A stretch of DNA of 64,000 nt from Escherichia coli (GTDB lineage: Bacteria; Pseudomonadota; Gammaproteobacteria; Enterobacterales; Enterobacteriaceae): the NCBI RefSeq assembly GCF_013122565.1, contig NZ_CP053258.1; one strand, 5' to 3'. The position numbers were made by a program, and so were the translations under genes. The notes under the pieces were generated by a model that was given only the letters and a program-made list of their open reading frames with translations, was not told the DNA's origin and did no database searches. This document shows positions 34,901-60,228 of the stretch, one piece after another; the stretch's first letter is position 1, and every line of letters starts with the position of its first letter.

Positions 34901-36132
34901 GCAGGTGCATAATACGGCTGATGCGGCTGTACTGGTTGTTGCAGCGGCTCATTATATTGCACTGCAGGCTGCGCATATTGTGACTGCTGTGGGTAACCTT
35001 CCGGTGCAGGAGCAATAACCGGCTCTCCCGTTTGTGGACCCGGTACAGGCTGCCAGGCTACTGTAGGTTGCGAAGGTGGAACATCAACAGAGGCAACAGG
35101 CGGCGTCTGAGTCACAGGTTCAACCGACGCAGCCCAGCTTTGTGTCGCCGTGGTAGCAGCAGCTGCTACAGCGACAGGTTCGGTAATTGGCGCACCGTTT
35201 AATAATGGATCGTATTCGTCATATTCTGGCTGCGTTGCACGATTGCCCGAAAATAGGACGTCGTCAGGGTCGGCAACCACACCGCGTGCAGTGTAGGTAA
35301 TCTCTTCTTCATCATCCATCCGCTTACCGGAGAACAGCGCAGCATCTGTTTGCCGCCCCATCGGATTAATGAATTTTTCCGCCAACCGTTTACGACGCGC
35401 TAGCGCGCCGCGAAGAATACGGGCACGGCGTGATTCATGCTGTTTGCCGTGATTTTCATCTTCATACTCTTCGTCGTCTTCATACTCATCTTCATCGACC
35501 CAGGTATCATCGCGACGGGTACGATTACTGGCGAAGGTGAGAATGTTTAAAATCCAGCCGCCGAGTTTTTCAGCAATGGTCACCCATGACCAACCGGTGA
35601 ACAACGTCAGGCCCGCTGCCCAAACGCAGAGCAGCGCAATAGTTCCCCCGCTACTGTGTAGCAGTGGTTGTAGCGTAGTGCTTAGTAAGCTGCCAATGAC
35701 GCCACCGGAGGCAAAATACCAGATATCGTCAGCGTTGATTGCCGCCAGACCACAGGAGGTAAGGATGAGCGCCAAAACGCCAATGATGCGTAGCGAAACG
35801 GCAAAATAATCAATGTATTCGTCGCTGGACTGATGACGCCAGGCAAACCAACAACCGCCGACAATAATGACGGGAATGGTGTAAGCCATCACGCCAAAAA
35901 TAAAGAACAGCGTATCTGCCAGCCATGCACCGGGCATTCCACCTAAATTATGGATAGGTTCATGCCAGGCCGTTTGCGACCAGCTGGGGTCCGAAGGGTT
36001 AAAGCTTAGTAAGGCAGCCATCAACCAGACGGCAAACAGGACAATAAGGATCAGCAACGCCTCCAGAAGGCGGCGGCCGCTACTTAACTTTGTCAATGTG
36101 ACTTCTTTGTCTTCAGTGTATTCCTGGCTCAA
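31987..36132 (-). CDS. ftsK: DNA translocase FtsK (divisome / chromosome dimer resolution)
   Basis: 1381 aa, TTG start; N-terminal TM domain, Pro/Gln-rich linker with tandem 13-aa repeats, C-terminal motor with Walker A GTTGSGKS and gamma domain. Confidence 0.95.
33525..33845 (-). repeat. About 8 tandem copies of a 39-bp repeat inside ftsK (encodes [10 protein letters not shown](P/Q)QY units)
   Basis: Plus strand shows ctgcggctgcggYgcaaccggttgttgcggctgctgata repeated head-to-tail with minor variants. Confidence 0.9.
34770..34925 (-). repeat. About 4 tandem copies of a second 39-bp repeat inside ftsK (encodes PYYAPA(A/P)EQP(A/V)QQ units)
   Basis: Plus strand shows ggttgttcYgg/cgcaggRgcataatacggctgttgcgca-like units repeated four times. 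Confidence 0.85.
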
Positions 36133-36266
36133 GAAAGGCTCTCCAGGTTACAGGCTTTTCCTGCCCGATGCTAAAACGGACAACAGTACCAGGTTACCCC
36201 AGTACTGTTGCTGTATGGATTAACAGGAGTGTAATCAAAATACGCCGATTTTGCACCTGTTCCGTG

Positions 36267-36761
36267 TTAGCGCGTCTTTATAACCAGACGATTACTCTGC
36301 TTGACTTCTTCCATAACAACGTATGTCCGTGTGTCATTGACGCCAGGCAGACGCAGCAGGGTTTCCCCCAGCAACTTACGGTAAGCTGACATATCCGGCA
36401 CGCGTGTTTTCAACAGGTAGTCGAAATCACCAGATACTAAATGACACTCCTGAATTTCTTCAAGTTTTTGTACAGCGGTATTGAATTGTTCAAACACATC
36501 CGGTGCGCCACGATTCAGAGTAATCTCAACGAATACCAGAAGTGATGCATCCAGATAATGGGGGTTCAGCAGCGCAGTATAGCCCTGAATAAACCCTTGT
36601 CTTTCCAGCCGACGCACACGCTCAAGGCACGGCGTTGGGGAAAGTCCCACACGTTTAGAAAGCTCGACGTTAGAAATACGCCCATCCTTTTGCAACTCAT
36701 TAAGAATGTTACGATCGATACGGTCGAGATCTTTGCCAGGGCGCTTCTTGCTATCTACCAT
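36267..36761 (-). CDS. lrp: Leucine-responsive regulatory protein
   Basis: ORF track 36267..36815; ATG at 36759-36761 (MVDSKKRPGKDLDRIDRNILNELQKDGRISNVELSKRVGLSPTPCLERV...) gives 164 aa. Confidence 0.96.
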   Translation of the reverse strand: MVDSKKRPGKDLDRIDRNILNELQKDGRISNVELSKRVGLSPTPCLERVRRLERQGFIQGYTALLNPHYLDASLLVFVEITLNRGAPDVFEQFNTAVQKLEEIQECHLVSGDFDYLLKTRVPDMSAYRKLLGETLLRLPGVNDTRTYVVMEEVKQSNRLVIKTR

Positions 36762-44054: not shown

Positions 44055-46331
44055 TTAATGCGCTGCTTCCGCCTTGTGCTTTTGTGCACTCTGGAATCCG
44101 TAAGTCAGCTCATTTTTCTCTTTATCCAGCGCGACGGTGACCTGACCGCCGTCCACCAGCGAACCAAACAACAGTTCGTTGGCGAGCGGTTTTTTCAGGT
44201 TGTCCTGGATGACACGCGCCATCGGACGTGCGCCCATTGCCCGGTCGTAACCTTTCTCGGCCAGCCAGTTACGCGCTTCCTGGCTCACTTCCAGAGAAAC
44301 ACCTTTCTGATCCAGCTGAACCTGCAACTCGACGATGAATTTATCCACCACCTGATGGATCACGTCAGTTGACAGATGATCGAACCAGATAATGTTGTCG
44401 AGACGGTTACGAAATTCCGGTGTAAAGATCTTCTTGATCTCTTCCATCGCATCGGTGCTGTTATCCTGGTGGATAAGACCAATGGATTTGCGCTCAGTTT
44501 CCCGTACCCCGGCGTTAGTGGTCATCACCAGCACCACGTTACGGAAGTCCGCTTTGCGTCCGTTGTTATCGGTCAGCGTACCGTTGTCCATCACCTGCAA
44601 CAGAATATTGAACACGTCCGGATGCGCTTTCTCGATTTCGTCCAGCAGCAGCACCGCATGTGGATGCTTGATTACCGCATCGGTCAGCAAACCGCCCTGA
44701 TCAAAACCAACGTATCCCGGAGGCGCACCAATCAGACGGCTGACGGTATGGCGTTCCATATACTCGGACATATCAAAGCGCAGCAGCTCAATGCCCAACG
44801 CTTTCGAAAGCTGTACCGTCACCTCTGTTTTCCCGACCCCGGTAGGGCCGGCAAACAGGAACGAACCGACCGGTTTATGTTCGTGACCTAAACCTGCACG
44901 AGCCATCTTAATGGCTTCAGTCAGCGCCTCAATGGCATTATCCTGACCGAAGACCAGCATTTTCAGGCGATCGCCGAGGTTTTTCAGGGTATCACGATCA
45001 CTCTGAGAAACACTCTTCTCTGGAATGCGTGCAATACGGGCCACCACGGACTCAATATCCGCCACATTTACGGTTTTCTTGCGTTTGCTTACCGGCATCA
45101 GGCGTGCGCGAGCGCCCGCTTCGTCGATAACATCAATCGCTTTATCCGGCAGATGACGATCGTTAATGTATTTCACCGCCAGCTCTACCGCCGCACGCAC
45201 CGCTTTTGCGGTATAACGCACGTCGTGGTGCGCTTCATACTTCGGTTTCAGGCCATTGATGATTTGAACAGTTTCTTCGATCGACGGTTCAGTAATATCA
45301 ATTTTCTGGAAGCGACGCGCCAGAGCACGGTCTTTCTCGAAAATGTTGCTGAACTCCTGATAGGTTGTCGAACCAATTACGCGAATTTTACCGCTGGAGA
45401 GCAACGGTTTGATCAGGTTAGCCGCATCGACCTGACCACCAGACGCTGCACCCGCACCGATAATGGTGTGGATCTCATCAATAAACAGGATGCTGTTAGT
45501 GTCCTGCTCCAGCTGCTTGAGCAACGCTTTAAAACGTTTTTCAAAGTCGCCGCGATATTTTGTGCCCGCTAACAGAGAACCGATATCGAGAGAATAAATC
45601 GTACAGTCAGCCATCACTTCCGGCACATCACCCTGAACAATTCGCCAGGCAAGACCTTCTGCAATCGCGGTTTTACCGACACCAGACTCCCCCACCAGCA
45701 GCGGGTTGTTTTTACGGCGACGGCAGAGAACCTGAATAGCACGCTCCAGCTCTTTCTCACGACCAATCAGTGGGTCGATTCCGCCCACACGCGCAAGCTG
45801 GTTCAGGTTCGTCGTGAAATTCTCCATACGTTCCTCCCCACCAGCTTGTTCTTCGCTGTTTGGCTGGCTGCCAGGATCAGAAGACTGTGTCGGCTCGTCT
45901 TTACGCGTGCCATGAGAGATAAAGTTCACCACATCGAGACGGCTGACTTCATGTTTACGCAACAGATATGCCGCCTGCGACTCCTGTTCGCTAAAGATAG
46001 CGACCAGAACGTTTGCACCGGTAACCTCATTGCGACCGGAGGACTGGACATGGAAGACCGCACGTTGCAGTACACGCTGAAAACTCAGCGTCGGCTGTGT
46101 GTCGCGCTCCTCTTCACTGGCAGGCAGAACGGGTGTGGTTTGTTCAATAAAGGCTTCCAGTTCCTGACGGAGCGCAACCAAATCCACAGAACACGCTTCC
46201 AGCGCCTCCCGGGCAGATGGGTTACTGAGCAGCGCCAGTAACAAGTGCTCGACGGTCATAAACTCATGACGGTGCTCGCGCGCTCTGGCGAAAGCCATAT
46301 TTAAACTGAGTTCCAGTTCTTGATTGAGCAT
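44055..46331 (-). CDS. clpA: ATP-dependent Clp protease ATP-binding subunit ClpA
   Basis: ORF track 44055..46346; ATG at 46329-46331 ([19 protein letters not shown]...) gives 758 aa; two AAA+ modules ([16 protein letters not shown]). Confidence 0.97.
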
Positions 46332-46361
46332 AGGCACCTCCCCCAATTTTTATGCCTGCAT

Positions 46362-46682
46362 TCAGGCTTTTTCTAGCGTACACAGCAATGGATGCTCATT
46401 CTCCCTCGCGTACTTGTTCACCATCGCCACTTTGGTTTCTGCAACCTCGGCGGTAAAGACTCCGCAAATGGCCTTCCCCTGGTAGTGAACAGCGAGCATC
46501 AATTGCGTTGCACGTTCTACATCATAAGAAAAGAATTTTTGTAACACGTCAATAACAAACTCCATCGGAGTGTAATCATCATTGACTAATATCACTTTAT
46601 ACATAGATGGCGGTTTTAGCGCGTCGCGAACTTTTTCTTCCGCCAGTTGATCAAAGTCCAGCCAGTCGTTCGTTTTACCCAT
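46362..46682 (-). CDS. clpS: ClpA adaptor for N-end rule substrates
   Basis: 106 aa [46 protein letters not shown]...; 30 nt upstream of clpA. Confidence 0.96.
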
Positions 46683-47004
46683 TGTCAGTTATCATCTTCG
46701 GTTACGGTTATCGGCAGAACGCCCTGCCGCTGACAAGAGCTTATTTGCCTGACCAATCTACTCCATATGATAGATAACTATCATCTATCGTTGGCATCAG
46801 CGACATCTGTCACATTCCTGTCAATAGCGTTAACTGCTTCAAATTTTTGATTCATACCTGCCCCCTGGCCCCTGTCAAATGCTTGACGGCTCGCCCTAAT
46901 TCTCTAAATTGTATTTCTAGAGTTGGCGAGGTTTTGAACAGCCCCCTCTCTGACCCCGGTTTATTCCATCTTACTTGTATAAGATTTGCGAAGGATGTCG
47001 AAGC

Positions 47005-47229
47005 ATGGAAAAGGGTACTGTTAAGTGGTTCAACAATGCCAAAGGGTTTGGTTTCATCTGCCCTGAAGGCGGCGGCGAAGATATTTTCGCTCATTATTCC
47101 ACCATTCAGATGGATGGTTACAGAACGCTAAAAGCTGGACAATCGGTTCAGTTTGATGTCCACCAGGGGCCAAAAGGCAATCACGCCAGTGTTATTGTGC
47201 CCGTCGAAGTAGAAGCGGCAGTCGCATAG
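47005..47229 (+). CDS. cspD: Cold-shock-domain protein CspD
   Basis: ORF track 46975..47229; ATG at 47005 (MEKGTVKWFNNAKGFGFICPEGGGEDIFAHYS...) gives 74 aa. Confidence 0.95.
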   Translation: MEKGTVKWFNNAKGFGFICPEGGGEDIFAHYSTIQMDGYRTLKAGQSVQFDVHQGPKGNHASVIVPVEVEAAVA

Positions 47230-47266
47230 CTCTTCTGTCTCATTGTGTACATCCTAAAGGCAAAAT

Positions 47267-47294
47267 GCCAGCCCGATCGGCTGGCATTTTTATC
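47267..47294. terminator. Bidirectional terminator between convergent cspD and macB
   Basis: aaaatGCCAGCCCGATCGGGCTGGCattttt: perfect 9-bp stem flanked by an A-tract and a T-tract. Confidence 0.75.
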
Positions 47295-47301
47295 TCAAAA
47301 A

Positions 47302-49248
47302 TTACTCTCGTGCCAGAGCATCTACTGGATCCAGTCGTGCCGCATTTCGTGCGGGTAACCAGCCAAATAAAATCCCGGTGACCGTCGAGCAGAGAAACGC
47401 CAGCAGCAGCGCCAACGGTGAAAAACCAATCTCCCAGCCGGGTAAGAAAAGCTGTAAGGTGAAAGCAATTAACAGTGACAGTGTTATTCCCAACGCGCCA
47501 CCGACCAGGCAAACCAGTACGGCTTCGATCAGGAACTGTTGCAAAACATCGCTTGCTCGCGCACCTACAGCCATGCGAATGCCAATTTCCCGCGTCCGCT
47601 CGGTCACTGACACCAGCATAATATTCATTACACCAATACCGCCCACCACCAGCGAAATCACCGCCACCAGCGTCAGAAACAGTTGTAAAGTACGTGTGGT
47701 CTTTTCAACAGTTTTCAAGACGCCGTCCATGTTCCAGGTAAAGAAATCCTTCTTACCGTGGCGCAGTGAAAGTAAACGCGTGAGTTGCTGTTCCGCCTCG
47801 GCGCTGTCAAATCCTTCTTTTACCCTGACAGTAATGGAGTTAAGCCACGACTGGCCCATAACTCGCCCGGACATCGTGCTGTAAGGTAGCCAGACACGCA
47901 GCACTTTACTGCTACCAAACATCGACTGTTTTTCTTCCGCCACACCAATGACTCTGGCGGGCATGTTTCCGACCAGAATCACCTCGCCAACCACATCGGC
48001 TTTATGGGGGAAAAGCTGGCGGCGAGTATTACTGTCGAGAACCACGACCTGCGCACGACCGTTCAGCTGCTCCTGATTAAAGGTGTTCCCTTCACTGAAG
48101 GTCATGCCATAGACATTAAAATAATCGCCGCTCACGCCATTGGCACTGGCAGCAACATCAACATTGTTATAACGCAGGCGCAGGTTTTGCGAGACGGCAG
48201 GTGTGGCTGAAGCGACCCACGGTTGTTTTTGGATGGCGATTAAGTCATCGTACTTCAGCGCCTGCTGATATTGCGGATCGTCATCGCCAAAATCTTTCCC
48301 GGGATAGACATCAATAGTATTCGTACCAATAGAACGAATATCCGCCAGCACCATTTGTTTGGCGGCGTCGCCCACCACGACAATGGAAACCACCGACGCA
48401 ATACCGATTATAATCCCCAGCATGGTCAGTAAAGTACGCATTTTATTCGCTGCCAGCGCCCGCCATGCCATCGTCAGCGCCTCATTAAAACCGCTGACAA
48501 ACTGCCGCCAGCCAGACGCCGTGTTGACAACAGGTTCCGTCCCGCCAGCAACATTCACTTGTTCAATGGCGGGAGGATTGCGCACAATTTCTCCGTCGCG
48601 AATTTCGATCACCCGCTCGGCCTGAGCAGCGACCTGCGGATCGTGGGTGACGATAATCACCGTATGCCCGCGATCACGCAGCTGATGCAGGATCGCCATC
48701 ACCTCTTCGCCAGAATGGCTGTCCAGTGCGCCGGTCGGTTCATCGGCAAGAATTACCTGACCGCCGTTCATCAATGCCCGCGCGATGCTGACGCGCTGTT
48801 GCTGACCACCCGAAAGCTGTGCCGGATAATACTCTGTACGGTCTTCCAGCCCCAGTCGTTGCAGCAACTCCTGGGCGCGAAGCAGCCGCTGTTTCCGCTC
48901 AAGACCAGCATAGACGGCAGGTACTTCAACGTTCTGCTCGGCGGTTAAATGTGAAAGCAAATGGTAACGCTGGAAAATAAAGCCGAAATGCTCGCGGCGC
49001 AGTTGTGCCAGCTCATCGGCGTCCAGCGTGGCAACATCCTGACCGGCTACGCGATAGGTGCCGCTGGTGGCCTTATCCAGGCAGCCGAGAATATTCATCA
49101 GGGTCGATTTACCGGAACCCGAAGCGCCGACAATCGCTACCATCTCACCGGCATAAATATCGAGGGTGATGCCCTTCAGCACCTCAACCTGCTCATCACC
49201 GGCAGGATAGCTGCGACGAATATCCTTTAATTCGAGCAAGGGTGTCAT
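47302..49248 (-). CDS. macB: Macrolide ABC exporter, fused ATPase/permease
   Basis: 648 aa; N-terminal NBD ([18 protein letters not shown]), C-terminal FtsX-like permease; start overlaps macA stop. Confidence 0.95.
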
Positions 49249-50360
49249 TGCGCAGCTCCTGGTTTGGCCTCACCAATCACCACTTCATCGCCCGCTTCCA
49301 GCCCTTTGACAATCTCAACATCGGTATCGTTACGTGCGCCAATCGTCACTTCACGCTCGCGTGTTTCACCATTACGCAACAATTTGACTTTATAACGATT
49401 ATCGCCAACCGGATCGCCTAACGCCGACAGAGGGATCGTCAGCACATTTTTCACATCGGTGAGCTGAATATGCACTTGCGCAGTCATATCCAGCCGCAGC
49501 AAACCATTGGGGTTGGGGACTTCAAAACGGGCGTAATAGAAAATAGCGTCGTTAACCTTTTCCGGCGTCGGTAGTACATCCTTGATTTGCCCCTCGTAGC
49601 GCGTCAGTGGATCGCCAAGTACCGTAAACCAGGCTTTTTGCCCCGGCTTCAGGTGGATTACATCTGCTTCAGAAACCTGCGCTTTTACCAGCATGGTGCT
49701 CATATCTGCCAGCGTCAGAATGTTCGGTGCTTGTTGTGCGGCAATCACCGTCTGGCCTTGCAGAGTGGTGATTTGCGTGACTTCCCCGGCCATCGGGGCA
49801 ACGATGCGAGTGTAATCGAGATTGGTTTTAGCCGTATCGAGAGAAGCCTGATTGCGCTTGATTTGCGCGTCAATGGTGCCAATTTGCGCCTGTTTCACAG
49901 CCATCTCCGTCGCGGCGGTGTCGAGATCCTGCTGTGAAACCGCCTGCGTTTGTGCAAGACGTTGCTGACGGGAATATGTCACCCGCGCCAGTTTCAGCTC
50001 CGCTTCCGCCTGCTGCCGCTGCGCGCGTAGCTCCATCAGCGTTGCTTCCACCTCCTTGATCTGGTTTTCAGCCTGTTCAGGATCAATAACCCCTAAAAGC
50101 TGGTCTTTTTTAACTTTATCGCCAATCGCCACCGACAGCGTTTTCAACTGACCGCTGACCTGCGCGCCCACGTCAACCTTACGCAGCGCGTCCAGCTTTC
50201 CGGTCGCCAGCACGCTTTGCTGTAAATCACCGGGGCGCACAATCAGCGTCTGATAAGTCGGAACGGGTGCGTTAAGAATTCTCCATAACGTAATCAGTCC
50301 GGCGATGACTATCACCAGCGCAATAACGTAACGCTTCTTCACGGTTTTCCGCTTTTTCAT
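49245..50360 (-). CDS. macA: Macrolide efflux membrane fusion protein
   Basis: ORF track 49245..50387; ATG at 50358-50360 ([18 protein letters not shown]...) gives 371 aa. Confidence 0.93.
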
Positions 50361-50474
50361 AAATATTCTGAATACTCCATATGCCAATCCGGGTCATTAA
50401 CTTCAACGAAATATCAACAAAACCCTAAAATTTACGTTAGTAATCACACTATTGATGTTTGGTTAAGATACGCA

Positions 50475-51467
50475 ATGATGAAATCGACGTCATGTACAAC
50501 CATTGATTTCATGAATATGTCGCAGCTAACTGAACGGACCTTTACGCCATCTGAATCTCGCAGCAGCCTGTCACTTTTTCTTAGTCTGGCACGTGGACAG
50601 TGTCGGCCGGGTAAATTCTGGCATCGCCGTAGTTTTCGCCAGAAATTTTTGCTGCGCTCGTTGATTATGCCGCGTTTAAGCGTTGAGTGGATGAACGAAC
50701 TTTCACACTGGCCTAATCTCAATGTGTTGTTAACGCGCCAGCCGCGACTGCCTGTACGTCTGCATCGCCCTTACCTTGCGGCGAATCTTAGCCGTAAGCA
50801 ATTGCTGGAGGCGTTACGTTACCATTATGCGTTACTCCGCGGGTGTATGTCGGCGGAAGAATTCAGCTTATATTTGAATACCCCCGGGCTGCAACTGGTG
50901 AAGCTGGAAGGCAAAAACGGCGAGCAGTTCACGCTTGAGCTGACCATGATGATCTCAATGGATAAAGAAGGTGACAGCACAATCCTGTTCCGCAACAGCG
51001 AAGGTATTCCTCTGGCAGAGATCACGTTTACCCTGTGTGAATATCAGGGGAAAAGAACGATGTTTATTGGCGGACTGCAAGGCGCAAAATGGGAAATCCC
51101 ACATCAGGAAATCCAGAATGCGACGAAAGCCTGCCACGGGCTATTTCCCAAACGCCTCGTGATGGAAGCGGCCTGTCTGTTTGCCCAACGTTTGCAGGTA
51201 GAGCAGATTATTGCCGTCAGCAATGAAACGCATATTTACCGCAGCCTGCGTTATCGCGATAAAGAAGGCAAGATCCATGCCGATTACAACGCTTTCTGGG
51301 AATCGGTTGGCGGCGTATGTGATGCTGAACGCCATTACCGCCTTCCAGCACAGATAGCACGAAAAGAGATTGCCGAAATCGCCAGTAAAAAACGGGCTGA
51401 ATACCGTCGGCGCTATGAGATGCTCGACGCTATTCAGCCACAAATGGCCACGATGTTTCGCGGTTAA
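50475..51467 (+). CDS. ybjX: VirK-like protein (DUF535 family)
   Basis: 330 aa ORF; family assignment is from recall of E. coli YbjX / Salmonella VirK, not a search; 3' end overlaps the convergent ybjD by 4 nt. Confidence 0.75.
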   Translation: MMKSTSCTTIDFMNMSQLTERTFTPSESRSSLSLFLSLARGQCRPGKFWHRRSFRQKFLLRSLIMPRLSVEWMNELSHWPNLNVLLTRQPRLPVRLHRPYLAANLSRKQLLEALRYHYALLRGCMSAEEFSLYLNTPGLQLVKLEGKNGEQFTLELTMMISMDKEGDSTILFRNSEGIPLAEITFTLCEYQGKRTMFIGGLQGAKWEIPHQEIQNATKACHGLFPKRLVMEAACLFAQRLQVEQIIAVSNETHIYRSLRYRDKEGKIHADYNAFWESVGGVCDAERHYRLPAQIARKEIAEIASKKRAEYRRRYEMLDAIQPQMATMFRG

Positions 51468-53122
51468 TCCGCGCGACCGCGCGCCAGCCACAGCACGCGT
51501 GAGAACATTTTTTTCAGCAGCGTCGGTACGGAGTCCACACCACGACGTCCGGCCTCCATTGCCACTTCAATGGCAAGATCGGGTTTGGAAGAGCGATGGA
51601 TCGCTTTCGAGATAATTTTGCGCAGATTCATCGGTACATTTTCCGGGATTTGCGCCACGCGGTGGAACACATCGGAAAATCCCTGGCGATACATAAAATG
51701 TTCCATATCCAGCGCCGGTAACGCCGTTAAATGTTCTCGTTCGGCTTCCCGATCATTATTCAACAGGCTGCGTACCGTAGCGGCATATTTCTTCCCTGCT
51801 TCATCGCCATCGACCAGTACATGCCATTCAATCCCCATTCGCCGGGCAAATTTAACCAGTGGCTTTAGCCCGGACTGGGCAAACTCAATGACCTTGATCC
51901 CTTCGGCATCAAAATGATGTCCGCACTGACGCGCCAGTTCATTTATAACCCAGGTTTCCGTTTCCCCTTCCACCAGCAACCAGCAGCGAGCAAACAGCGA
52001 TGACGGACGATTAAAACGAATGTGAAAAGAGATGCGGCGGCTGTCTTCGGTGCTCAAGCCACTTGGCCCCAGACGCCAGGCGGCAACACGAGAAGATTCA
52101 CGCACCAGGCGGCAAACATGTTCCACTGGAGTTAACGAAAGCAGCTCGCCAGAGTTGGTGGTAGCAATACGTTGTAAAGGCAAAAGATTCAACAGATGCC
52201 AGGCAACTGAAAGCATAATGGGGTGTAAACGCGTTTCTGGATCTTCGATCAGCAACAATGGACGGGCGTCTTTATCCAGTCGCAATGTGCCTTTTGCCTG
52301 CAATAAAGTAGCAAACAGGCCGAGCAAAATAACCCGATACGAGCGCCCTCCAGGTCGGTCAATCATCCGGTTGATGATGTCCAGATAGCGCCAGCTTCGT
52401 TGCTCATTGCTGGCCCGCCGCCGCATTAAACGATATCGCGCCTGTCCAGCCCCCTGCTCAGAGAAATAATGCTCAAGCAACTGCACCATTGCGGAAAGTC
52501 CCTGACGAATCTGTCCATCAGAGAGATTTTGCGGATGTGAGGACAACTCACGGGCGAGGAAATCGAGCTGGCGCGCGGTGACTTCCACATTGGGGACATT
52601 TGGCACCGTGCCGTTACGAATACGGCGCATAAAACGGGCATCACGCAAGCGCAGCACCGGCATTAAACGCACCAGATGGCGTGCCTGATCGTTAATATCC
52701 TCAACATCAATCGGATGTCCGTCTTTATCGAGAAAACTGCGCAGTGTCATCACGCTGCCGTCTTCCGCACTCTCCCCTTCCAGACGATAAAAAATACGGT
52801 GATAGCCATCGGTGCATGGCGTCCAGCACGCTTCCAGCGGTCGATAGCGGCGAACCCGATGTCGGCCTGGCAGCGATTCGCGGAAGGTCAAAATAATATG
52901 CAGATGATGTTCCCGACCGTTGATATCTCCCGGCGGGAACCAGAAATCGTCGCGCTCAAAATGGTAGAGATCTGATTCTGGCGATAGCAGCAGGGTTAAG
53001 GCGTCCAGCAAGCTGGATTTACCCCACGCGTTCTCCCCAATCAGGACGTTGTTTTGTTCCAGCATCAACGACAAACGGTTGATACCGCGAAAACCCACAA
53101 TTTCAACGCGCTCAAGAATCAT
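51464..53122 (-). CDS. ybjD: OLD-family protein: N-terminal ABC-type ATPase plus C-terminal Toprim nuclease-like domain
   Basis: 552 aa; Walker A GENAWGKSS near the N-terminus, acidic LLVEGETE Toprim-like motif in the C-terminal third. Confidence 0.85.
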   Translation of the reverse strand: MILERVEIVGFRGINRLSLMLEQNNVLIGENAWGKSSLLDALTLLLSPESDLYHFERDDFWFPPGDINGREHHLHIILTFRESLPGRHRVRRYRPLEACWTPCTDGYHRIFYRLEGESAEDGSVMTLRSFLDKDGHPIDVEDINDQARHLVRLMPVLRLRDARFMRRIRNGTVPNVPNVEVTARQLDFLARELSSHPQNLSDGQIRQGLSAMVQLLEHYFSEQGAGQARYRLMRRRASNEQRSWRYLDIINRMIDRPGGRSYRVILLGLFATLLQAKGTLRLDKDARPLLLIEDPETRLHPIMLSVAWHLLNLLPLQRIATTNSGELLSLTPVEHVCRLVRESSRVAAWRLGPSGLSTEDSRRISFHIRFNRPSSLFARCWLLVEGETETWVINELARQCGHHFDAEGIKVIEFAQSGLKPLVKFARRMGIEWHVLVDGDEAGKKYAATVRSLLNNDREAEREHLTALPALDMEHFMYRQGFSDVFHRVAQIPENVPMNLRKIISKAIHRSSKPDLAIEVAMEAGRRGVDSVPTLLKKMFSRVLWLARGRAD

Positions 53123-53547
53123 ATCCCCTCCAGAAATATGTGACTTATCCTTTACGCTGGCAGTATAACGGGAAAGGCCTTGCTAATACGTGATGACATC
53201 ACATTTAAGCATGGCAAATGTCTGAAAAATGAGCGAATAATCGCGTTATACTCCCTCTTGCTGATAAGTCTGCAAAAACAACAAAATCAAATAATTAGCA
53301 TGATAAATTATTTTTTATTACGCCTAAAGGATTAAATCTTTTGCTTGCACTACACTGTCAATCAGACAAATGACTATATGGGGCAACCCGCTGTTGCCCT
53401 AAATCAAATTTACTGGATTTATTTATCTGGTGAATGGCTCACCTTCGTTTTTAAAATAGCCGCGCATTATTTCCGTCGTCACTTATTTACGACGACCCTA
53501 TATAACGACCATATTTTTCACAGGGTCAATTTTTAATTGAGGTGGAT

Positions 53548-54243
53548 ATGTTCAGAAAATTAGCAGCTGAATGTTTTGGTACTTTCTGGCTTGTTTTTGG
53601 TGGCTGTGGTAGTGCTATTCTGGCCGCAGGCTTCCCGGAATTAGGCATCGGTTTTGCCGGCGTGGCGCTGGCATTCGGTTTGACCGTTCTGACGATGGCC
53701 TTTGCTGTTGGTCACATTTCTGGTGGTCATTTTAACCCGGCGGTCACTATTGGTTTATGGGCTGGCGGACGTTTTCCGGCAAAAGAAGTCGTTGGCTACG
53801 TAATTGCCCAAGTTGTCGGCGGTATTGTTGCAGCGGCGCTGCTGTATTTAATTGCCAGTGGTAAAACGGGTTTTGACGCGGCAGCCAGCGGTTTTGCTTC
53901 TAACGGTTATGGCGAGCATTCACCAGGCGGTTATTCCATGCTTTCCGCGCTGGTAGTTGAACTGGTATTGAGTGCAGGTTTCCTGTTGGTGATCCACGGC
54001 GCAACCGACAAATTCGCTCCGGCAGGTTTTGCGCCGATCGCGATTGGTCTGGCCTTAACCCTGATTCACTTAATCAGTATTCCGGTGACTAACACTTCTG
54101 TTAACCCGGCGCGCAGCACCGCGGTTGCCATCTTCCAGGGCGGCTGGGCATTAGAACAACTGTGGTTCTTCTGGGTGGTGCCAATTGTCGGCGGCATTAT
54201 CGGTGGTCTGATTTACCGGACTCTACTGGAAAAGCGTAATTAA
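53548..54243 (+). CDS. aqpZ: Aquaporin Z
   Basis: ATG at 53548 ([19 protein letters not shown]...) gives 231 aa; two NPA motifs (HFNPAVT, VNPARS). Confidence 0.96.
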
Positions 54244-54289
54244 TTAGTATTGGCATTTTATCTGCCCTGGTTATTTTATCTTCGACGTT

Positions 54290-54540
54290 ACAAACCGCAC
54301 GGGTGTTGGTGGCGTCAAAATCGCTGAAGCGTTCCCCGAAGGCCGGGGCAGCCCACATGGATGTGGGCTGAGGGCGCGTCTTACAGGGACGTTACCTCGC
54401 GCCCGACCCGGTAGCCGAAGGGGATAAGCTGAAGGTACCGCGCAGCGGCGATTTTGTTCGCCAGAGCCCGGGGGTGCAGGGGGCGGCGGCGACTGGCCGC
54501 CCCCTGCGCGCTCCCTGCGCCAGTGGCTTTATATGGCATT
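54290..54540. other. GC-rich intergenic element with several perfect hairpins
   Basis: Perfect inverted repeats cagcccacat/atgtgggctg (about 54349-54370), cagggggcggc/gccgccccctg (about 54477-54506) and gggcgcg/cgcgccc with a 19-nt loop (about 54372-54404); GC content far above flanks. Function unknown. Confidence 0.5.
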
Positions 54541-54701
54541 GCACATGAAAGGAGCGCAACAATGCTAAACGCTCATATAGAATTAAAAATCCCCCTCTGA
54601 TGCATAACATTTCCTTTTAATTGCAACTTTACTCGTCCTTCCGCTTTCAGTAGTGTGTCATCGCGCATTTCGACTTCTTTCTTTGCAAGGACTGGGTTTT
54701 C

Positions 54702-55601
54702 ATGTTTTCTGGGCTGTTAATCATTTTGGTTCCCCTGATTGTGGGTTACCTCATTCCTCTTCGCCAAAAAGCTGCATTAAGAGTTATTAATCAGCTATTA
54801 AGCTGGATGGTTTACCTCATTCTCTTTTTTATGGGTATCAGTCTGGCGTTTCTCGATAACCTCGCCAGTAACCTGTTGGCGATTCTGCATTATTCTGCCG
54901 TCAGTATTACCGTTATTTTACTGTGTAATATTGCCGCCCTGATGTGGCTGGAGCGCGGTCTGCCGTGGCGCAATCACCATCAGCAAGAAAAACTCCCATC
55001 GCGTATTGCGATGGCACTGGAGTCGCTAAAACTGTGCGGCGTAGTAGTGATTGGTTTTGCCATTGGTCTGAGTGGACTGGCTTTCTTACAACACGCGACC
55101 GAAGCCAGTGAATACACCTTAATTCTGCTACTTTTCCTCGTCGGTATTCAGTTGCGCAATAATGGCATGACCTTAAAGCAGATTGTCCTTAATCGCCGGG
55201 GAATGATTGTCGCCGTGGTGGTGGTTGTCAGTTCATTAATTGGTGGTTTAATTAACGCCTTTATTCTTGATCTCCCCATCAATACCGCGCTGGCAATGGC
55301 CTCCGGTTTCGGCTGGTATTCTCTTTCCGGTATTTTATTGACCGAATCTTTTGGTCCGGTAATCGGGAGCGCGGCGTTTTTTAATGATCTGGCCCGTGAA
55401 CTGATTGCTATTATGTTGATCCCTGGGCTGATTCGCCGCAGCCGCTCTACTGCACTGGGCTTATGCGGTGCCACATCAATGGATTTCACCCTGCCCGTTC
55501 TTCAACGTACTGGCGGACTGGATATGGTCCCGGCGGCAATTGTTCACGGTTTTATTCTTAGCCTGTTAGTGCCGATCCTCATCGCCTTTTTCTCTGCATA
55601 A
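54702..55601 (+). CDS. ybjE: Lysine exporter LysO
   Basis: 299 aa polytopic membrane protein MFSGLLIILVPLIVGYLIPL... Confidence 0.85.
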   Translation: MFSGLLIILVPLIVGYLIPLRQKAALRVINQLLSWMVYLILFFMGISLAFLDNLASNLLAILHYSAVSITVILLCNIAALMWLERGLPWRNHHQQEKLPSRIAMALESLKLCGVVVIGFAIGLSGLAFLQHATEASEYTLILLLFLVGIQLRNNGMTLKQIVLNRRGMIVAVVVVVSSLIGGLINAFILDLPINTALAMASGFGWYSLSGILLTESFGPVIGSAAFFNDLARELIAIMLIPGLIRRSRSTALGLCGATSMDFTLPVLQRTGGLDMVPAAIVHGFILSLLVPILIAFFSA

Positions 55602-55744
55602 TACCTCTCTGGCGGTAGATCCCTGCCGCCAAAATTGCGCTAAATCAATCTCCCTTAAAGTTGCATGAAAAATCCCTTTTATCCCCGCGTTAAGCGTCTT
55701 AACCTTAAACATGTATATTAAATATAACTTTAAAAGGTGTGATC

Positions 55745-57397
55745 ATGTTTTGTGTGCAATGTGAACAAACTATCCGTACTCCGGCAGGAAACGGCTGCTC
55801 ATACGCGCAGGGGATGTGTGGTAAAACGGCGGAAACCTCTGACCTTCAGGATTTACTCATCGCGACGCTGCAAGGGCTTTCGGCCTGGGCGGTAAAAGCG
55901 CGTGAATACGGCATCATCAACCACGATGTAGACAGCTTTGCGCCACGCGCATTTTTCTCAACCCTGACCAACGTTAACTTCGATTCTCCACGTATTGTCG
56001 GCTACGCTCGTGAAGCGATTGCCCTGCGCGAGGCGCTGAAAGCACAATGCCTGGCTGTAGATGCCAACGCCTGCGTCGATAATCCGATGGCTGACCTGCA
56101 ACTGGAGAGCGACGATCTCGGCGAGCTGCAACGTCAGGCAGCTGAATTTACGCCAAATAAAGATAAAGCGGCGATTGGCGAAAACATTCTCGGCCTGCGT
56201 CTGCTGTGCCTGTATGGCCTGAAAGGTGCGGCGGCCTATATGGAACACGCCCACGTTCTCGGTCAATACGACAACGATATTTATGCCCAGTACCATAAAA
56301 TCATGGCGTGGCTGGGGACCTGGCCTGCCGATATGAACGCGCTTCTTGAGTGTTCAATGGAAATCGGCCAGATGAACTTCAAAGTGATGAGCATTCTGGA
56401 TGCAGGCGAAACCGGTAAATACGGTCACCCGACGCCAACCCAGGTCAACGTCAAAGCGACGGCGGGTAAATGCATCCTGATTTCCGGTCACGATCTCAAA
56501 GATCTCTACAACCTGCTGGAACAGACCGAAGGCACGGGCGTTAATGTCTACACCCACGGCGAAATGCTGCCTGCGCATGGCTACCCGGAGCTGCGTAAAT
56601 TCAAGCATCTGGTCGGTAACTACGGCAGCGGCTGGCAGAATCAGCAAGTTGAGTTCGCTCGCTTCCCTGGCCCTATCGTGATGACGTCGAACTGCATCAT
56701 CGATCCAACCGTAGGCGCTTATGACGATCGTATCTGGACCCGCAGCATCGTTGGCTGGCCGGGTGTGCGTCATCTGGATGGCGAAGATTTTTCTGCGGTC
56801 ATCGCCCAGGCGCAACAAATGGCGGGCTTCCCGTACAGCGAAATTCCGCACCTGATCACCGTGGGCTTTGGCCGCCAGACGCTGCTTGGCGCAGCGGATA
56901 CGCTGATTGATCTGGTGAGCCGTGAAAAACTGCGTCATATCTTCCTGCTTGGTGGCTGTGACGGCGCACGCGGCGAGCGCCACTACTTCACCGATTTCGC
57001 CACCAGCGTGCCGGATGACTGCCTGATCCTGACTCTCGCCTGTGGTAAATATCGCTTTAACAAACTTGAGTTTGGCGATATCGAAGGTCTGCCGCGTCTG
57101 GTAGATGCAGGTCAATGTAACGATGCTTACTCAGCAATTATTCTGGCGGTAACGCTGGCAGAAAAACTGGGCTGCGGTGTCAACGATCTGCCGCTGTCGC
57201 TGGTGCTCTCCTGGTTTGAACAGAAAGCGATCGTCATTCTGCTGACGCTGCTTTCTCTGGGCGTGAAAAATATCGTCACCGGCCCGACTGCACCTGGTTT
57301 CCTGACACCAGACCTGCTGGCGGTGCTGAACGAGAAATTCGGCCTGCGTTCTATCACCACTGTTGAAGAAGACATGAAGCAACTGTTGAGCGCGTAA
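55745..57397 (+). CDS. hcp: Hybrid-cluster protein (hydroxylamine reductase)
   Basis: ORF track 55739..57397; ATG at 55745 ([27 protein letters not shown]...) gives 550 aa; N-terminal Cys cluster. Confidence 0.94.
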
Positions 57398-57408
57398 GGA
57401 GTTTGTCG

Positions 57409-58377
57409 ATGACGATGCCAACGAATCAATGCCCGTGGCGGATGCAGGTTCATCACATTAAGCAAGAAACGCCGGATGTGTGGACGATTTCCCTGATTTG
57501 CCACGATTACTACCCATATCGCGCCGGGCAATATGCACTGGTCAGCGTGCGGAACTCAGCGGAAACGCTGCGTGCTTACACCATTTCCTCCACGCCAGGC
57601 GTGAGTGAATACATCAGCCTGACCGTGCGGCGGATTGATGACGGTGTCGGCTCCCAGTGGCTGACGCGCGATGTAAAACGCGGTGATTATCTCTGGCTTT
57701 CGGACGCGATGGGGGTATTTACCTGTGACGATAAAGCAGAAGATAAATTCCTGTTGCTGGCGGCAGGCTGCGGCGTCACGCCGATTATGTCGATGCGTCG
57801 CTGGCTGGCGAAGAACCGTCCACAGGCCGATGTGCAGGTGATCTACAATGTGCGTACGCCGCAGGATGTTATTTTCGCCGATGAGTGGCGTAACTATCCG
57901 GTAACGCTGGTGGCGGAAAATAACGTTACCGAAGGCTTTATCGCTGGTCGTCTCACTCGCGAACTGCTGGCAAGCGTTCCTGATTTAGCCTCACGTACCG
58001 TGATGACTTGTGGTCCAGCACCGTATATGGATTGGGTAGAACAGGAAGTGAAGGCGCTCGGCGTGACGCGTTTCTTTAAAGAGAAATTCTTCACCCCAGT
58101 AGCGGAAGCGGCGACCAGCGGTCTGAAATTCACCAAACTGCAACCGGCACGAGAATTTTACGCCCCGGTTGGCACTACGCTACTGAAGGCGCTGGAAAGC
58201 AATAACGTTCCGGTTGTCGCCGCCTGCCGCGCGGGTGTTTGCGGCTGCTGTAAGACGAAAGTGGTTTCCGGTGAATATACGGTGAGCAGTACAATGACGC
58301 TGACCGACGCCGAAATCGCTGAAGGTTACGTACTGGCCTGCTCCTGCCATCCGCAGGGGGATTTGGTTCTCGCATAA
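57409..58377 (+). CDS. hcr: NADH oxidoreductase partner of Hcp
   Basis: ATG at 57409 (MTMPTNQCPWRMQVHHI...) gives 322 aa; C-terminal 2Fe-2S motif CRAGVCGCCKTK. Confidence 0.94.
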   Translation: MTMPTNQCPWRMQVHHIKQETPDVWTISLICHDYYPYRAGQYALVSVRNSAETLRAYTISSTPGVSEYISLTVRRIDDGVGSQWLTRDVKRGDYLWLSDAMGVFTCDDKAEDKFLLLAAGCGVTPIMSMRRWLAKNRPQADVQVIYNVRTPQDVIFADEWRNYPVTLVAENNVTEGFIAGRLTRELLASVPDLASRTVMTCGPAPYMDWVEQEVKALGVTRFFKEKFFTPVAEAATSGLKFTKLQPAREFYAPVGTTLLKALESNNVPVVAACRAGVCGCCKTKVVSGEYTVSSTMTLTDAEIAEGYVLACSCHPQGDLVLA

Positions 58378-58509
58378 TCGCCTTATGCCCGATGATATTC
58401 CTTTCATCGGGCTATTTAACCGTTAGTGCCTCCTTTTTCTCCCATCCCTTCCCCCTCCGTCAGATGAACTAAACTTGTTACCGTTATCACATTCAGGAGA
58501 TGGAGAACC

Positions 58510-60228
58510 ATGAAACAAACGGTTGCAGCTTATATCGCCAAAACACTCGAATCGGCAGGCGTGAAACGCATCTGGGGAGTCACGGGCGACTCTCTGAACG
58601 GTCTTAGCGACAGTCTTAATCGCATGGGCACCATCGAGTGGATGTCCACCCGCCATGAAGAAGTGGCGGCGTTTGCCGCTGGCGCTGAAGCACAACTTTC
58701 AGGAGAACTGGCGGTCTGTGCCGGATCTTGCGGCCCCGGCAACCTGCACTTAATCAACGGCCTGTTCGATTGCCACCGCAATCACGTTCCGGTACTGGCG
58801 ATTGCCGCTCATATTCCCTCCAGCGAAATTGGCAGCGGCTATTTCCAGGAAACCCACCCACAAGAGCTATTCCGCGAATGTAGTCACTATTGCGAGCTGG
58901 TTTCCAGCCCGGAGCAGATCCCACAAGTGCTGGCAATTGCTATGCGCAAAGCGGTGCTTAACCGTGGCGTTTCTGTTGTTGTGTTACCGGGCGACGTGGC
59001 GTTAAAACCTGCACCAGAAGGGGCAACTACCCACTGGTATCATGCGCCACAGCCAGTCGTGACGCCGGAAGAAGAAGAGTTACGCAAACTGGCGCAACTG
59101 CTGCGTTATTCCAGCAATATCGCCCTGATGTGTGGCAGCGGCTGCGCGGGAGCGCATAAAGAGTTAGTTGAGTTTGCCGGTAAAATTAAAGCGCCTATTG
59201 TTCATGCCCTGCGCGGTAAAGAGCATGTCGAATACGATAATCCGTATGATGTCGGAATGACCGGGTTAATCGGCTTCTCGTCAGGTTTCCATACCATGAT
59301 GAACGCCGACACGTTAGTGCTACTCGGCACGCAATTTCCGTACCGCGCGTTCTACCCGACCGATGCCAAAATTATTCAGATTGATATCAATCCAGCCAGC
59401 ATCGGCGCTCACAGCAAGGTGGATATGGCACTGGTCGGCGATATCAAATCGACTCTGCGTGCATTGCTGCCACTGGTGGAAGAAAAAACCGATCGCAAGT
59501 TTCTGGATAAAGCGCTGGAAGATTACCGCGATGCCCGCAAAGGGCTGGACGATTTAGCTAAACCGAGCGAGAAAGCCATTCACCCGCAATATCTGGCGCA
59601 GCAAATTAGTCATTTTGCCGCCGATGACGCCATCTTTACCTGTGACGTCGGCACGCCAACGGTATGGGCGGCACGTTATCTGAAAATGAATGGCAAGCGT
59701 CGCCTGTTAGGTTCGTTTAACCACGGTTCGATGGCTAACGCCATGCCGCAGGCGCTGGGCGCGCAGGCAACCGAGCCAGAACGCCAGGTGGTCGCCATGT
59801 GCGGCGATGGCGGTTTTAGCATGTTGATGGGCGATTTCCTCTCAGTAGTGCAGATGAAACTGCCGGTGAAAATTATCGTCTTTAATAACAGTGTGCTGGG
59901 CTTTGTGGCGATGGAGATGAAAGCCGGAGGCTACCTGACAGACGGTACTGAGCTGCACGACACCAACTTTGCCCGTATCGCCGAAGCATGCGGCATTACG
60001 GGTATCCGTGTAGAAAAAGCGTCTGAAGTTGATGAAGCCCTGCAACGCGCCTTCTCCATCGACGGTCCGGTATTGGTGGATGTGGTGGTCGCCAAAGAAG
60101 AGTTAGCCATTCCACCGCAGATCAAACTTGAACAGGCCAAAGGTTTCAGCCTGTATATGCTGCGCGCAATCATCAGCGGACGCGGTGATGAAGTGATCGA
60201 ACTGGCGAAAACGAACTGGCTAAGGTAA
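58510..60228 (+). CDS. poxB: Pyruvate oxidase (ubiquinone-dependent, TPP/FAD)
   Basis: 572 aa [37 protein letters not shown]... Confidence 0.97.

Follow-up and report, generated by a model that had tools for sequence, protein, structure and literature searches.

YbjD of Escherichia coli, a stand-alone OLD-family protein with a predicted Class 2-type nuclease end, is encoded by a vertically inherited core gene

The product of E. coli ybjD is probably (we would put it at about 0.6) a functional stand-alone OLD enzyme that pairs a Class 2-type nuclease and GajA-like gating with the status of a non-mobile core gene. Its coding sequence occupies positions 51464–53122, on the minus strand, of the window (the whole 64-kb stretch of DNA that was analyzed). 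It starts with an ATG preceded by GGAGG at 5 nt upstream and specifies 552 amino acids and a stop codon; the ORF list and Pfam identify an OLD-family ATPase–Toprim protein. This reading frame is E. coli ybjD, and in the colinear strain SBF45 it bears the RefSeq label “ybjD: ATP-dependent endonuclease.” The gene is real, annotated, and already published as encoding an OLD protein (PMC6755086, PMC13261556), so the OLD identity, as originally predicted, matters little by itself. It is nevertheless one of the approximately 15% of E. coli K-12 genes without known function, and it poses a puzzle: from Escherichia to Vibrio, a nuclease of a defence family persists as a core gene that evolves slowly, and its active site is invariant yet dispensable for the only known phenotype, one of overexpression. 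The answer would show whether bacteria recruit defence-type enzymes for housekeeping, as archaea did in the case of Cran1.

The original prediction had recognized an ABC-type ATPase by its Walker A motif, GENAWGKSS, and a Toprim-like domain by its acidic motif, LVEGETE. The HMM search that it proposed as a check locates both domains, with scores far above chance: Pfam DUF2813 spans residues 1–375 (E 2.1e-160) and OLD-like_TOPRIM residues 376–440 (E 3.8e-16). AAA_15, AAA_21, and SMC_N are matched as well; in NCBIfam no model reaches its cut-off, and the only matches are P-loop fragments of RecF, PtuA, and MADS3. Residues 1–375 (51998–53122, minus strand, as are the segments that follow) comprise the N-terminal ATPase, of ABC type, into which a helical region of the dimerization type is inserted; the AF2 model displays a beta-rich P-loop core with helices at residues 180–277. 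The Walker A motif lies at residues 29–37 (53012–53038) and includes K35. The Walker B motif and D-loop, LLLIEDPETRLHP, occupy residues 289–301 (52220–52258), with LLLIEDPE at 289–296; E293 and H300, which flank D294 in this segment, can be mapped by analogy to E276 and H283 of the Thermus scotoductus (Ts) OLD.

The Toprim nuclease core, residues 376–475 (51698–51997), has the E..E, DxD, and D/S/T-x-E acidic ligands that mark the OLD family. The predicted metal ligands are E385 and E389 of the LVEGETE motif (residues 383–389), D438 and D440 of a DGD sequence, and D472 and E474. Their spacing agrees with that of E377/D381 and D431/D433 in Ts OLD and of D541/E543 in P2 Old. A C-terminal helical domain of Class 2 type follows at residues 473–548 (51479–51706) and carries an invariant K513–P514 pair, the K513 codon being at 51584–51586. 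In 48 diverse YbjD relatives, with identities down to 28%, the seven nuclease residues (the six acidic ligands and K513) are invariant without exception. The ATPase residues are under looser conservation: G29 and E30 are invariant, but position 35 is Lys in 43 sequences, Arg in four, and Ser in one, while E293 is found in 44/48, an acidic residue at 294 in 42/48, and H300 in 47/48. Given this looser conservation of the ATPase residues, some members may hydrolyze ATP weakly or not at all.

Comparison of the AF2 model (pLDDT 86) with known structures agrees with the proposed OLD-family architecture. The best matches, with E values from 1e-14 to 1e-19, include Ts OLD (7e-18) and retron-Eco8 OLD, and the top full-length match is Gabija GajA of Bacillus cereus VD045 (8sm3, 8u7i, 8x5i; E 1e-19, TMq 0.53–0.59). 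YbjD also belongs with GajA by profile. In PADLOC the GajA model PDLC00094 scores 267 bits (E 7e-80), other GajA models 117–138 bits, and Old 84 bits; the match to AriA is confined to the P-loop region, residues 1–51. For the C-terminal region taken separately, Foldseek gives TMq values of 0.72–0.74 to 6nk8 and 6njw and of 0.39 to 6p74, and profile scores of 29.3 and 27.5 bits versus 18.1 likewise favor the Class 2 type. On the evidence of the AlphaFold models (pLDDT 86 and 95.5), the nuclease end of YbjD belongs structurally to the Gabija/Class 2 type, with its C-terminal helical domain and conserved lysine.

The literature places YbjD elsewhere. Schiltz 2019 assigned it to Class 1 (PMC6755086), and this label rests on gene context (PMC6755086, PMC13261556). 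Like the Class 1 OLDs (P2 Old, Ts OLD [6p74], and Vibrio cholerae OLD), YbjD is encoded by a stand-alone gene with no partner in cis, fuses ATPase to Toprim, and retains the acidic metal ligands. The Class 1 Toprim, as seen in the Ts OLD structure, has neither the Insert-3 helix nor the C-terminal helical domain (PMC7049728), whereas YbjD is predicted to have the helical domain. Class 1 enzymes place a basic residue about seven positions after the metal-B Glu (R487 in Ts OLD, K550 in P2 Old); the nearest equivalent in YbjD, R479, is variable (Arg in 9/48), and the invariant basic residue is instead K513, 39 residues past E474. Variable neighbourhoods and horizontal spread are further traits of Class 1 (PMC12796447), and P2 Old and V. 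cholerae OLD reside on mobile elements, but the slot of ybjD in the core chromosome is fixed.

No other class accommodates YbjD in full. The helicase partner expected of Class 2/GajA is absent within 8 kb at every ybjD-type locus examined. The Class 2 OLDs of Burkholderia pseudomallei and Xanthomonas campestris (6nk8, 6njv/6njw/6njx) share only about 20% identity with YbjD, which is also set apart from them by an N-terminal region that constitutes its own Pfam family, DUF2813. Class 3 OLDs adjoin a reverse transcriptase and a retron ncRNA; here no reverse transcriptase is annotated, and no Rfam family matches within 45000–60000, the ybjD–aqpZ intergenic region included. In Class 4 (PARIS AriA/AriB) the ATPase and Toprim are on two genes, whereas YbjD is one 552-aa fusion. 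The mismatch suggests that the context-based classification of OLD proteins needs phylogenetic or structural revision.

GajA and YbjD have in common the plan of ATPase, dimerization insert, Toprim, and helical domain, and GajA provides the model for the mechanism that we propose. In this scheme a two-metal Toprim nuclease is fused to the ABC-type ATPase at the N terminus and its helical oligomerization insert, and the C-terminal helical domain, as predicted from the Class 2 architecture of GajA and the Burkholderia OLD, would complete the active site by supplying K513. Nucleotide at the P-loop would keep the homo-oligomer inactive. Loss of this restraint, or some trigger, would license DNA binding, and E385/E389, D438/D440, and D472/E474, with K513, could then carry out metal-dependent nicking or cleavage. 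ATP binding restrains GajA, and the K35A mutant of YbjD is more toxic but retains protection, a result for which GajA has been cited as precedent for ATP restraint (PMC13261556). We assume the nuclease and ATPase activities from homologues, and we only infer what YbjD acts on, how it oligomerizes, what triggers it in its native setting, and that ATP gates it. YbjD differs from the Gabija enzyme in having no GajB, in lying outside defence islands, and, in contrast also to P2 Old and PARIS, in not being mobile; its identity to GajA is only 12%–16%, and anti-phage activity at native levels was not detected (PMC13261556).

The distribution of ybjD is that of a vertically inherited core gene, which is unusual for a gene of defence type. 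It is present and intact in 5424/5426 complete E. coli genomes. Gene order in the window, ycaQ to amiD, follows that of the core E. coli chromosome, and the GC content of ybjD (52.9%, versus 51.0% for the window) gives no sign of foreign origin. The original prediction had described a single gene without helicase or other partner, in a conserved core context rather than a new island, and the only defence-like candidate in the window. All of this stands: the immediate neighbours are ybjX (VirK/DUF535) and aqpZ, and nowhere in the 64 kb does the annotation list another defence gene, helicase and reverse transcriptase included. Conservation of the locus extends across Enterobacterales. A single slot, hcp–lysO–(aqpZ)–ybjD–(ybjX)–macAB, is occupied in 80 species-representative loci of this order among the matches listed, and also in Yersinia; the relatives in two Vibrio species occupy a terC–ushA slot. 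Protein identity, 90% between E. coli and Salmonella, declines along with host relatedness as far as Aeromonas and Vibrio, and dN/dS within Enterobacteriaceae is 0.016–0.067, similar to the values for macB, lysO, and hcp. These features suggest that ybjD, which has no helicase in cis, has stayed in the same chromosomal slot at least since the Enterobacterales ancestor.

A GajB-type helicase is found neither in the 80 Enterobacterales loci among the matches listed nor in eight contexts of distant relatives, a ninth sequence being too short to show its neighbours. The neighbours of distant relatives include the housekeeping genes dxs, nrdAB/cysS, and ushA and, once, PolB. Since every relative examined is without the helicase, the solo state is ancient and stable. 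A search of the phage collection for copies of ybjD yielded as its sole match a 2-kb unannotated record spanning 98 aa; P2 Old was not picked up by tblastn in that collection. Apparent plasmid copies proved to be mislabelled chromosomes, chromids, or chromosomal fragments.

One might suppose that ybjD is an orphaned gajA, left inert after the loss of gajB. The Class 2-type C-terminal region and the best HMM matches, to GajA, in a protein with no helicase would be explained, as would the lack of a phenotype on deletion (PMC13261556). This is nevertheless very improbable. The low dN/dS and high Salmonella identity, the catalytic residues kept in all 48 relatives, the nearly universal intact gene, the detected transcript (PMC13261556), and the antiquity of the solo state all oppose it, and the selection data effectively refute it.

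The proposal that YbjD is a dedicated anti-phage system deserves more attention. In Atahualpa 2026, overexpressed YbjD had weak effects against phages, whereas its deletion had none (PMC13261556); the name oldB has been proposed for YbjD as a single-gene Class 1 OLD defence. Such a system would sense infection and halt phage replication, as P2 Old and V. cholerae OLD do. Induction at a non-toxic level reduced plaquing of Bas18 and Bas20 and gave smaller plaques of Bas64–68 (PMC13261556), the characterized bacterial members of the family are defence proteins, and ybjD stands alone, as Class 1 genes do. We nonetheless consider a dedicated anti-phage role doubtful. Deletion at native expression levels had no effect against 68 BASEL phages, and the partial protection conferred by overexpression required the ATPase region while the Toprim domain and its acidic residues were dispensable (PMC13261556). 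The effect is narrow and Toprim-independent, though nowhere is YbjD more conserved than at its nuclease residues. Because the only reported phenotype is independent of these residues, our nuclease-centred mechanism also leaves the published anti-phage effect unexplained. Furthermore, the gene is core, syntenic, slowly evolving, outside any defence island, and not carried by phages or genuine plasmids, the opposite of typical defence genes. Finally, the toxicity of YbjD is RecBC-independent, unlike that of P2 Old (PMC13261556).

A second explanation is that YbjD is a domesticated OLD enzyme that acts in housekeeping maintenance of DNA or chromosomes, for example by processing DNA of aberrant structure, possibly aided in trans by an SF1 helicase of the host; the phage effects of overexpression would then be incidental to its binding of DNA. 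We regard this as no more probable than the anti-phage role, and hold it only tentatively. The ABC ATPase of YbjD is of the RecF/Rad50/SMC type, and distant relatives sit among housekeeping genes. According to a Salmonella transposon screen as cited in PMC7049728, an old homologue is conditionally essential under temperature stress. A parallel would be Cran1, an OLD-family ATPase of Sulfolobales (PMC12796447). Like YbjD, the Cran1 clade combines a fixed locus, vertical inheritance within an order rather than scattered horizontal spread, and strong purifying selection; Cran1 also carries a helical insertion in its Toprim domain, serves the cell cycle by means of its ATPase rather than its nuclease, and gives an overexpression phenotype that is ATPase-dependent and nuclease-independent (PMC12796447). 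The parallel is one of analogy only. Cran1 is an archaeal protein, is essential, and has been shown to act in the cell cycle (PMC12796447), whereas ybjD is non-essential, its transcript being detected but no repair or growth phenotype reported in E. coli (PMC13261556). YbjD and DUF2813 go unnamed in the supplement of the Cran1 paper. Nor does any conserved neighbour of ybjD indicate a pathway.

It is conceivable, if less probable than our main reading of a gated Class 2-type enzyme, that the DUF2813 clade represents a distinct vertical lineage of OLD proteins, in which a Class 2/Gabija-type nuclease has adopted a solo core lifestyle and whose native task, in place of mobile phage defence of the classical sort, is housekeeping genome maintenance or a surveillance in which a host helicase takes part in trans. 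If so, YbjD would be the bacterial counterpart of Cran1, and the context-based “Class 1” label would lump unrelated lineages. In that case ybjD, which occurs in essentially every E. coli, is unlikely to be included in the 0.45% of genomes published for Class 1 OLDs. Several of the present observations go unmentioned in Atahualpa 2026: the invariance of the nuclease residues beside looser ATPase residues, the single syntenic slot with its dN/dS values, the absence from phages, and the conserved TTAA overlap described below.

The divergent ybjD–aqpZ intergenic region (53123–53547) has to contain the ybjD promoter, but the promoter scan found no match to the sigma-70 consensus there, and its inverted repeats are weak. 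No LexA-type box lies upstream of ybjD with one mismatch allowed, and matches across the window are at chance level. Against the housekeeping explanation, this region offers neither a LexA box nor a recognizable regulated promoter.

On the other side, ybjX (50511–51467, plus strand) converges on ybjD. A 4-nt overlap of the two 3' ends had been claimed and can be read directly as TTAA at 51464–51467: the ybjX stop is the TAA at 51465–51467, and the TAA of ybjD is the reverse complement of 51464–51466. The overlap has no room for an intergenic terminator, and the terminator scan found no terminator-like site at the junction. ybjX was considered as a functional partner of ybjD and ruled out. It is dispensable next to ybjD, being missing in Klebsiella, Raoultella, Superficieibacter, Pectobacterium, and Brenneria, and its dN/dS (0.07–0.26) exceeds that of ybjD in 8/9 comparable pairs. 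Where a convergent ybjX is present, the TTAA stop overlap is retained in 44 of 58 loci, and the pair has been catalogued as a convergent excludon (PMC12288877).

The ybjD reading frame (51464..53122, minus strand, 552 codons) starts at an ATG with GGAGG 5 nt upstream. The OLD architecture originally predicted for its product, an ATPase joined to a Toprim domain, is borne out far beyond chance by Pfam, which places DUF2813 on residues 1-375 (E 2.1e-160) and OLD-like_TOPRIM on residues 376-440 (E 3.8e-16); generic P-loop families also match. The search for a Toprim domain, chosen as a possible refutation, thus finds one. Both quoted motifs are present, the Walker A sequence GENAWGKSS at residues 29-37, with K35 as its lysine, and LVEGETE at residues 383-389. 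PADLOC ranks GajA first (267 bits), then Old (84 bits) and AriA; NCBIfam gave 0 models at cut-off. The setting is a conserved core region and no island, as had been proposed: the 2.6-kb segment ybjX-ybjD-aqpZ is found, normally in single copy, in 5424 of 5426 complete E. coli genomes, where the three genes are annotated in a row (ybjD as 'ATP-dependent endonuclease'), and the entire 64-kb window, ycaQ to amiD, has core genes only and is colinear with strain SBF45. The GC content of ybjD (52.9% vs 51.0% for the window) is unremarkable. With nothing else annotated as defence within the 64 kb, ybjD remains the sole defence-like candidate. The feature is real and was rightly described and interpreted; it had been published before, so that it is no new finding.

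Direct characterisation of ybjD, with the proposed name oldB, was reported by Atahualpa et al. in 2026 (PMC13261556). In that work the gene is expressed, and the Keio deletion shows no plaque phenotype on BASEL phages; arabinose-induced ybjD lowered plaquing by Bas18 and Bas20 and made plaques of Bas64-68 smaller. This phage effect was unaltered by removal of Toprim (residues 1-377 left) or by acidic-residue mutation, and was lost on deletion of the ATPase region; K35A kept protection and raised toxicity, which is RecBC-independent, in contrast to P2 Old. The paper mentions neither a helical domain, nor a structural model, nor core-genome conservation. As cited in PMC7049728, the ybjD homologue of Salmonella was reportedly conditionally essential under temperature stress in a transposon screen. 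Up-regulation of ybjD, among other genes, by a cathelicidin-derived peptide in UPEC is weak evidence (PMC6737244).

Comparison with residues defined for Thermus and P2 OLD assigns to the ATPase Walker A K35, Walker B E293-D294, D-loop H300 and an asparagine, N323, at the H-loop position, and to Toprim E385, D438 and D440 (metal A) and E389, D472 and E474 (metal B). Across 48 aligned full-length family representatives (28-54% identity, from a library clustered at 50% identity), each of the six metal-site residues is invariant (48/48), as is K513, together with P514. At position 35, 43 sequences have K, 4 have R and one has S; an acidic residue occupies position 294 in 42/48, and at position 323, 34 sequences have N and 7 have H. 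Judged from this alignment, the nuclease site is the most constrained part of YbjD, with the ATPase residues less strictly conserved. Such constraint fits poorly with a Toprim domain that is dispensable for the sole reported phenotype. An invariant nuclease site but a Toprim-independent phenotype points to a native function that experiments have yet to reveal, a view also suggested in the 2026 paper (PMC13261556).

A template-free AlphaFold2 model, for which the family alignment was the only input, is confident over the full length (pLDDT 86, pTM 0.85), and the structural comparison originally proposed as a check returns OLD-family proteins as best PDB matches: Gabija GajA (E 1e-19, TMq 0.53-0.59), the Class 1 OLD of Thermus scotoductus (Ts OLD, 6p74; E 7e-18, TMq 0.44) and retron-Eco8 OLD (E about 1e-14, TMq 0.42-0.50). 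Beyond the Toprim strands, a short helix (458-464) is followed in the model by four more that span 473-548, one of which has K513 at its start; Ts OLD instead uses R487, 7 residues past the metal-B glutamate (PMC7049728). Residues 372-552 were modelled separately (pLDDT 95.5) and compared with solved structures. They match the Class 2 C-terminal regions (CTRs) of B. pseudomallei (6nk8; TMq 0.72; 17.4, 164/181 at 2.4 Å; profile 29.3 bits) and X. campestris (6njv/6njw/6njx; TMq 0.69-0.74; profile 27.5 bits) more closely than Gabija GajA (TMq 0.45-0.60; 12.6, 153) or Ts OLD (TMq 0.39; 12.0, 129; profile 18.1 bits).

The OLD survey of Schiltz et al. (2019), seeded with YbjD, counted the E. coli gene in 'Class 1', the stand-alone genes (PMC6755086). 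Since the C-terminal match is closer to Class 2 CTRs than to Ts OLD, YbjD would be Class 1 by gene context only, with a nuclease module predicted to be structurally Class 2 (Gabija-type), although ybjD lacks the adjacent UvrD-like helicase that defines Class 2. The reported occurrence of Class 1 OLDs in 0.45% of genomes, a DefenseFinder figure (PMC13261556, PMC12392090), is hard to square with YbjD as Class 1, YbjD being present at every Enterobacterales locus examined. In our judgement that figure, and the DefenseFinder Old model, are unlikely to count the YbjD clade, because ybjD is in essentially every E. coli (5424/5426).

The reading with the best support makes YbjD a functional OLD enzyme, in which the Toprim nuclease would be controlled by an ABC-type nucleotide-binding module bearing a helical oligomerisation insert, and K513 would, on the model, complete the two-metal site of the nuclease. 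ATP binding probably restrains activity, because K35A is more toxic, GajA sets a precedent for inhibition by ATP, and conservation is weaker at the hydrolysis residues than at those of the nuclease. Substrate, trigger and oligomeric state we infer. A helicase-less gene with a Class 2-type nuclease module, the invariance of its nuclease site and inheritance that is strictly vertical add a testable angle; they do not make ybjD a new kind of system.

A single slot, hcp-lysO-(aqpZ)-ybjD-(ybjX)-macAB, holds ybjD from Escherichia through Serratia, Pectobacterium and Yersinia; two Vibrio species have a slot of their own, terC-ushA followed by the YbjD relative. Amino-acid identity to the window's YbjD declines in step with host phylogeny, from 97-100% in Escherichia through about 90% in Salmonella and Citrobacter, about 85% in Klebsiella and Enterobacter, 65-68% in Serratia, Pectobacterium and Yersinia, 56% in Proteus and 45% in Aeromonas to 42-43% in Vibrio. 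Pairwise dN/dS (NG86) is 0.016-0.067 against Enterobacteriaceae, a range shared with macB, lysO, aqpZ and hcp, and ~0.12 against Serratia, where dS is near saturation, so that distant-pair ratios are approximate. These selection data exclude a non-functional relic. The family numbers 335 clusters (50% identity) at E <= 1e-30 and extends to the betaproteobacterium Chitinilyticum and to Binatia. No YbjD-type gene occurs among 50,697 phage records, and supposed 'plasmid' copies were rejected as mislabelled chromosomes, chromids or chromosomal fragments with the same neighbours.

Defence genes are typically patchy and mobile, and the distribution of ybjD is the opposite; it resembles that of Cran1, a Sulfolobales OLD protein for which Yang et al. 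arrived at a non-defence role from a like pattern (PMC12796447). Defence as the native role, which the phage effect of induced ybjD favours and this inheritance does not, is a tentative proposal; a housekeeping role, suggested by the Cran1 parallel, is equally tentative.

Six giant YbjD-like relatives (P0149, P0162, P0163, P0165, P0175 and P0196; 1187-1867 aa) carry big insertions within the DUF2813 ATPase region, and in some the part beyond Toprim extends for as much as ~1100 aa and matches nothing in Pfam. All named members come from Anaerobiospirillum (Succinivibrionaceae).

The original description of a single gene without a helicase partner holds at the window locus and beyond it: no helicase lies beside ybjD in Salmonella, the best 80 genome matches (all Enterobacterales), Yersinia, one Vibrio or seven distant relatives, an eighth being left out of the tally as its 2.2-kb contig shows no flanks. 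The distant relatives are all solo, amid ordinary genes: between pgpA and dxs, ushA and cof, cysS and nrdB, vapBC and PolB, or LOG and SulP, after an alpha/beta hydrolase, and on a short contig with unannotated flanks. In a metagenomic contig (L092, 832-4882; L093, 801-4851), the sole context seen with a DNA-metabolism neighbour, a family-B DNA polymerase lies 47 nt downstream of the DUF2813-OLD gene on the same strand, and a PhdYeFM/PIN (vapBC-type) toxin-antitoxin pair precedes it; the cluster of this contig includes a Candidatus Binatia protein.

No LexA box was found upstream of ybjD, and a promoter scan of the 425-bp divergent aqpZ-ybjD region (53123-53547) found no consensus sigma-70 promoter; a regulatory clue is therefore lacking. 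This region, used by other laboratories as a neutral chromosomal integration site (PMC9203016), has only weak inverted repeats (53159-53173 with 53241-53255; 53376-53387 with 53393-53404). The window has a single perfect palindrome of the LexA-box-like form CTGT-N8-ACAG, CTGTATGGATTAACAG at 36211-36226, ~150 nt inside ftsK (32305-36372, minus strand) as counted from its annotated 5' end; across the window the pattern is matched about as often as chance predicts. The ftsK gene has an SOS-inducible promoter (dinH).

The overlap with convergent ybjX is exactly 4 nt, as first described: 51464-51467 reads TTAA, a TAA stop on either strand. It is kept in 44/58 loci with convergent ybjX, as far as Serratia, and is mutationally locked, because changing any of the four bases would destroy a stop codon. 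A terminator scan found no terminator-like site at the junction, consistent with the convergent transcriptional overlap of ybjD-ybjX in the ExcludonFinder list (PMC12288877). As a partner, ybjX was rejected: it is missing beside ybjD in Klebsiella, Raoultella, Superficieibacter, Pectobacterium and Brenneria, its identity is 44-60% where that of ybjD is 80-90%, and its dN/dS (0.07-0.26) exceeds that of ybjD in 8/9 comparable pairs. This VirK/DUF535 gene (50511-51467) evolves far faster than its neighbours (flanking genes 80-95% identical) and has been lost repeatedly across Enterobacterales; aqpZ is also variably present, being missing in Salmonella, for example. At four Kluyvera-type loci (L040, L043, L044 and L048), ~1.1 kb of extra DNA between ybjD and ybjX replaces the 4-nt overlap.
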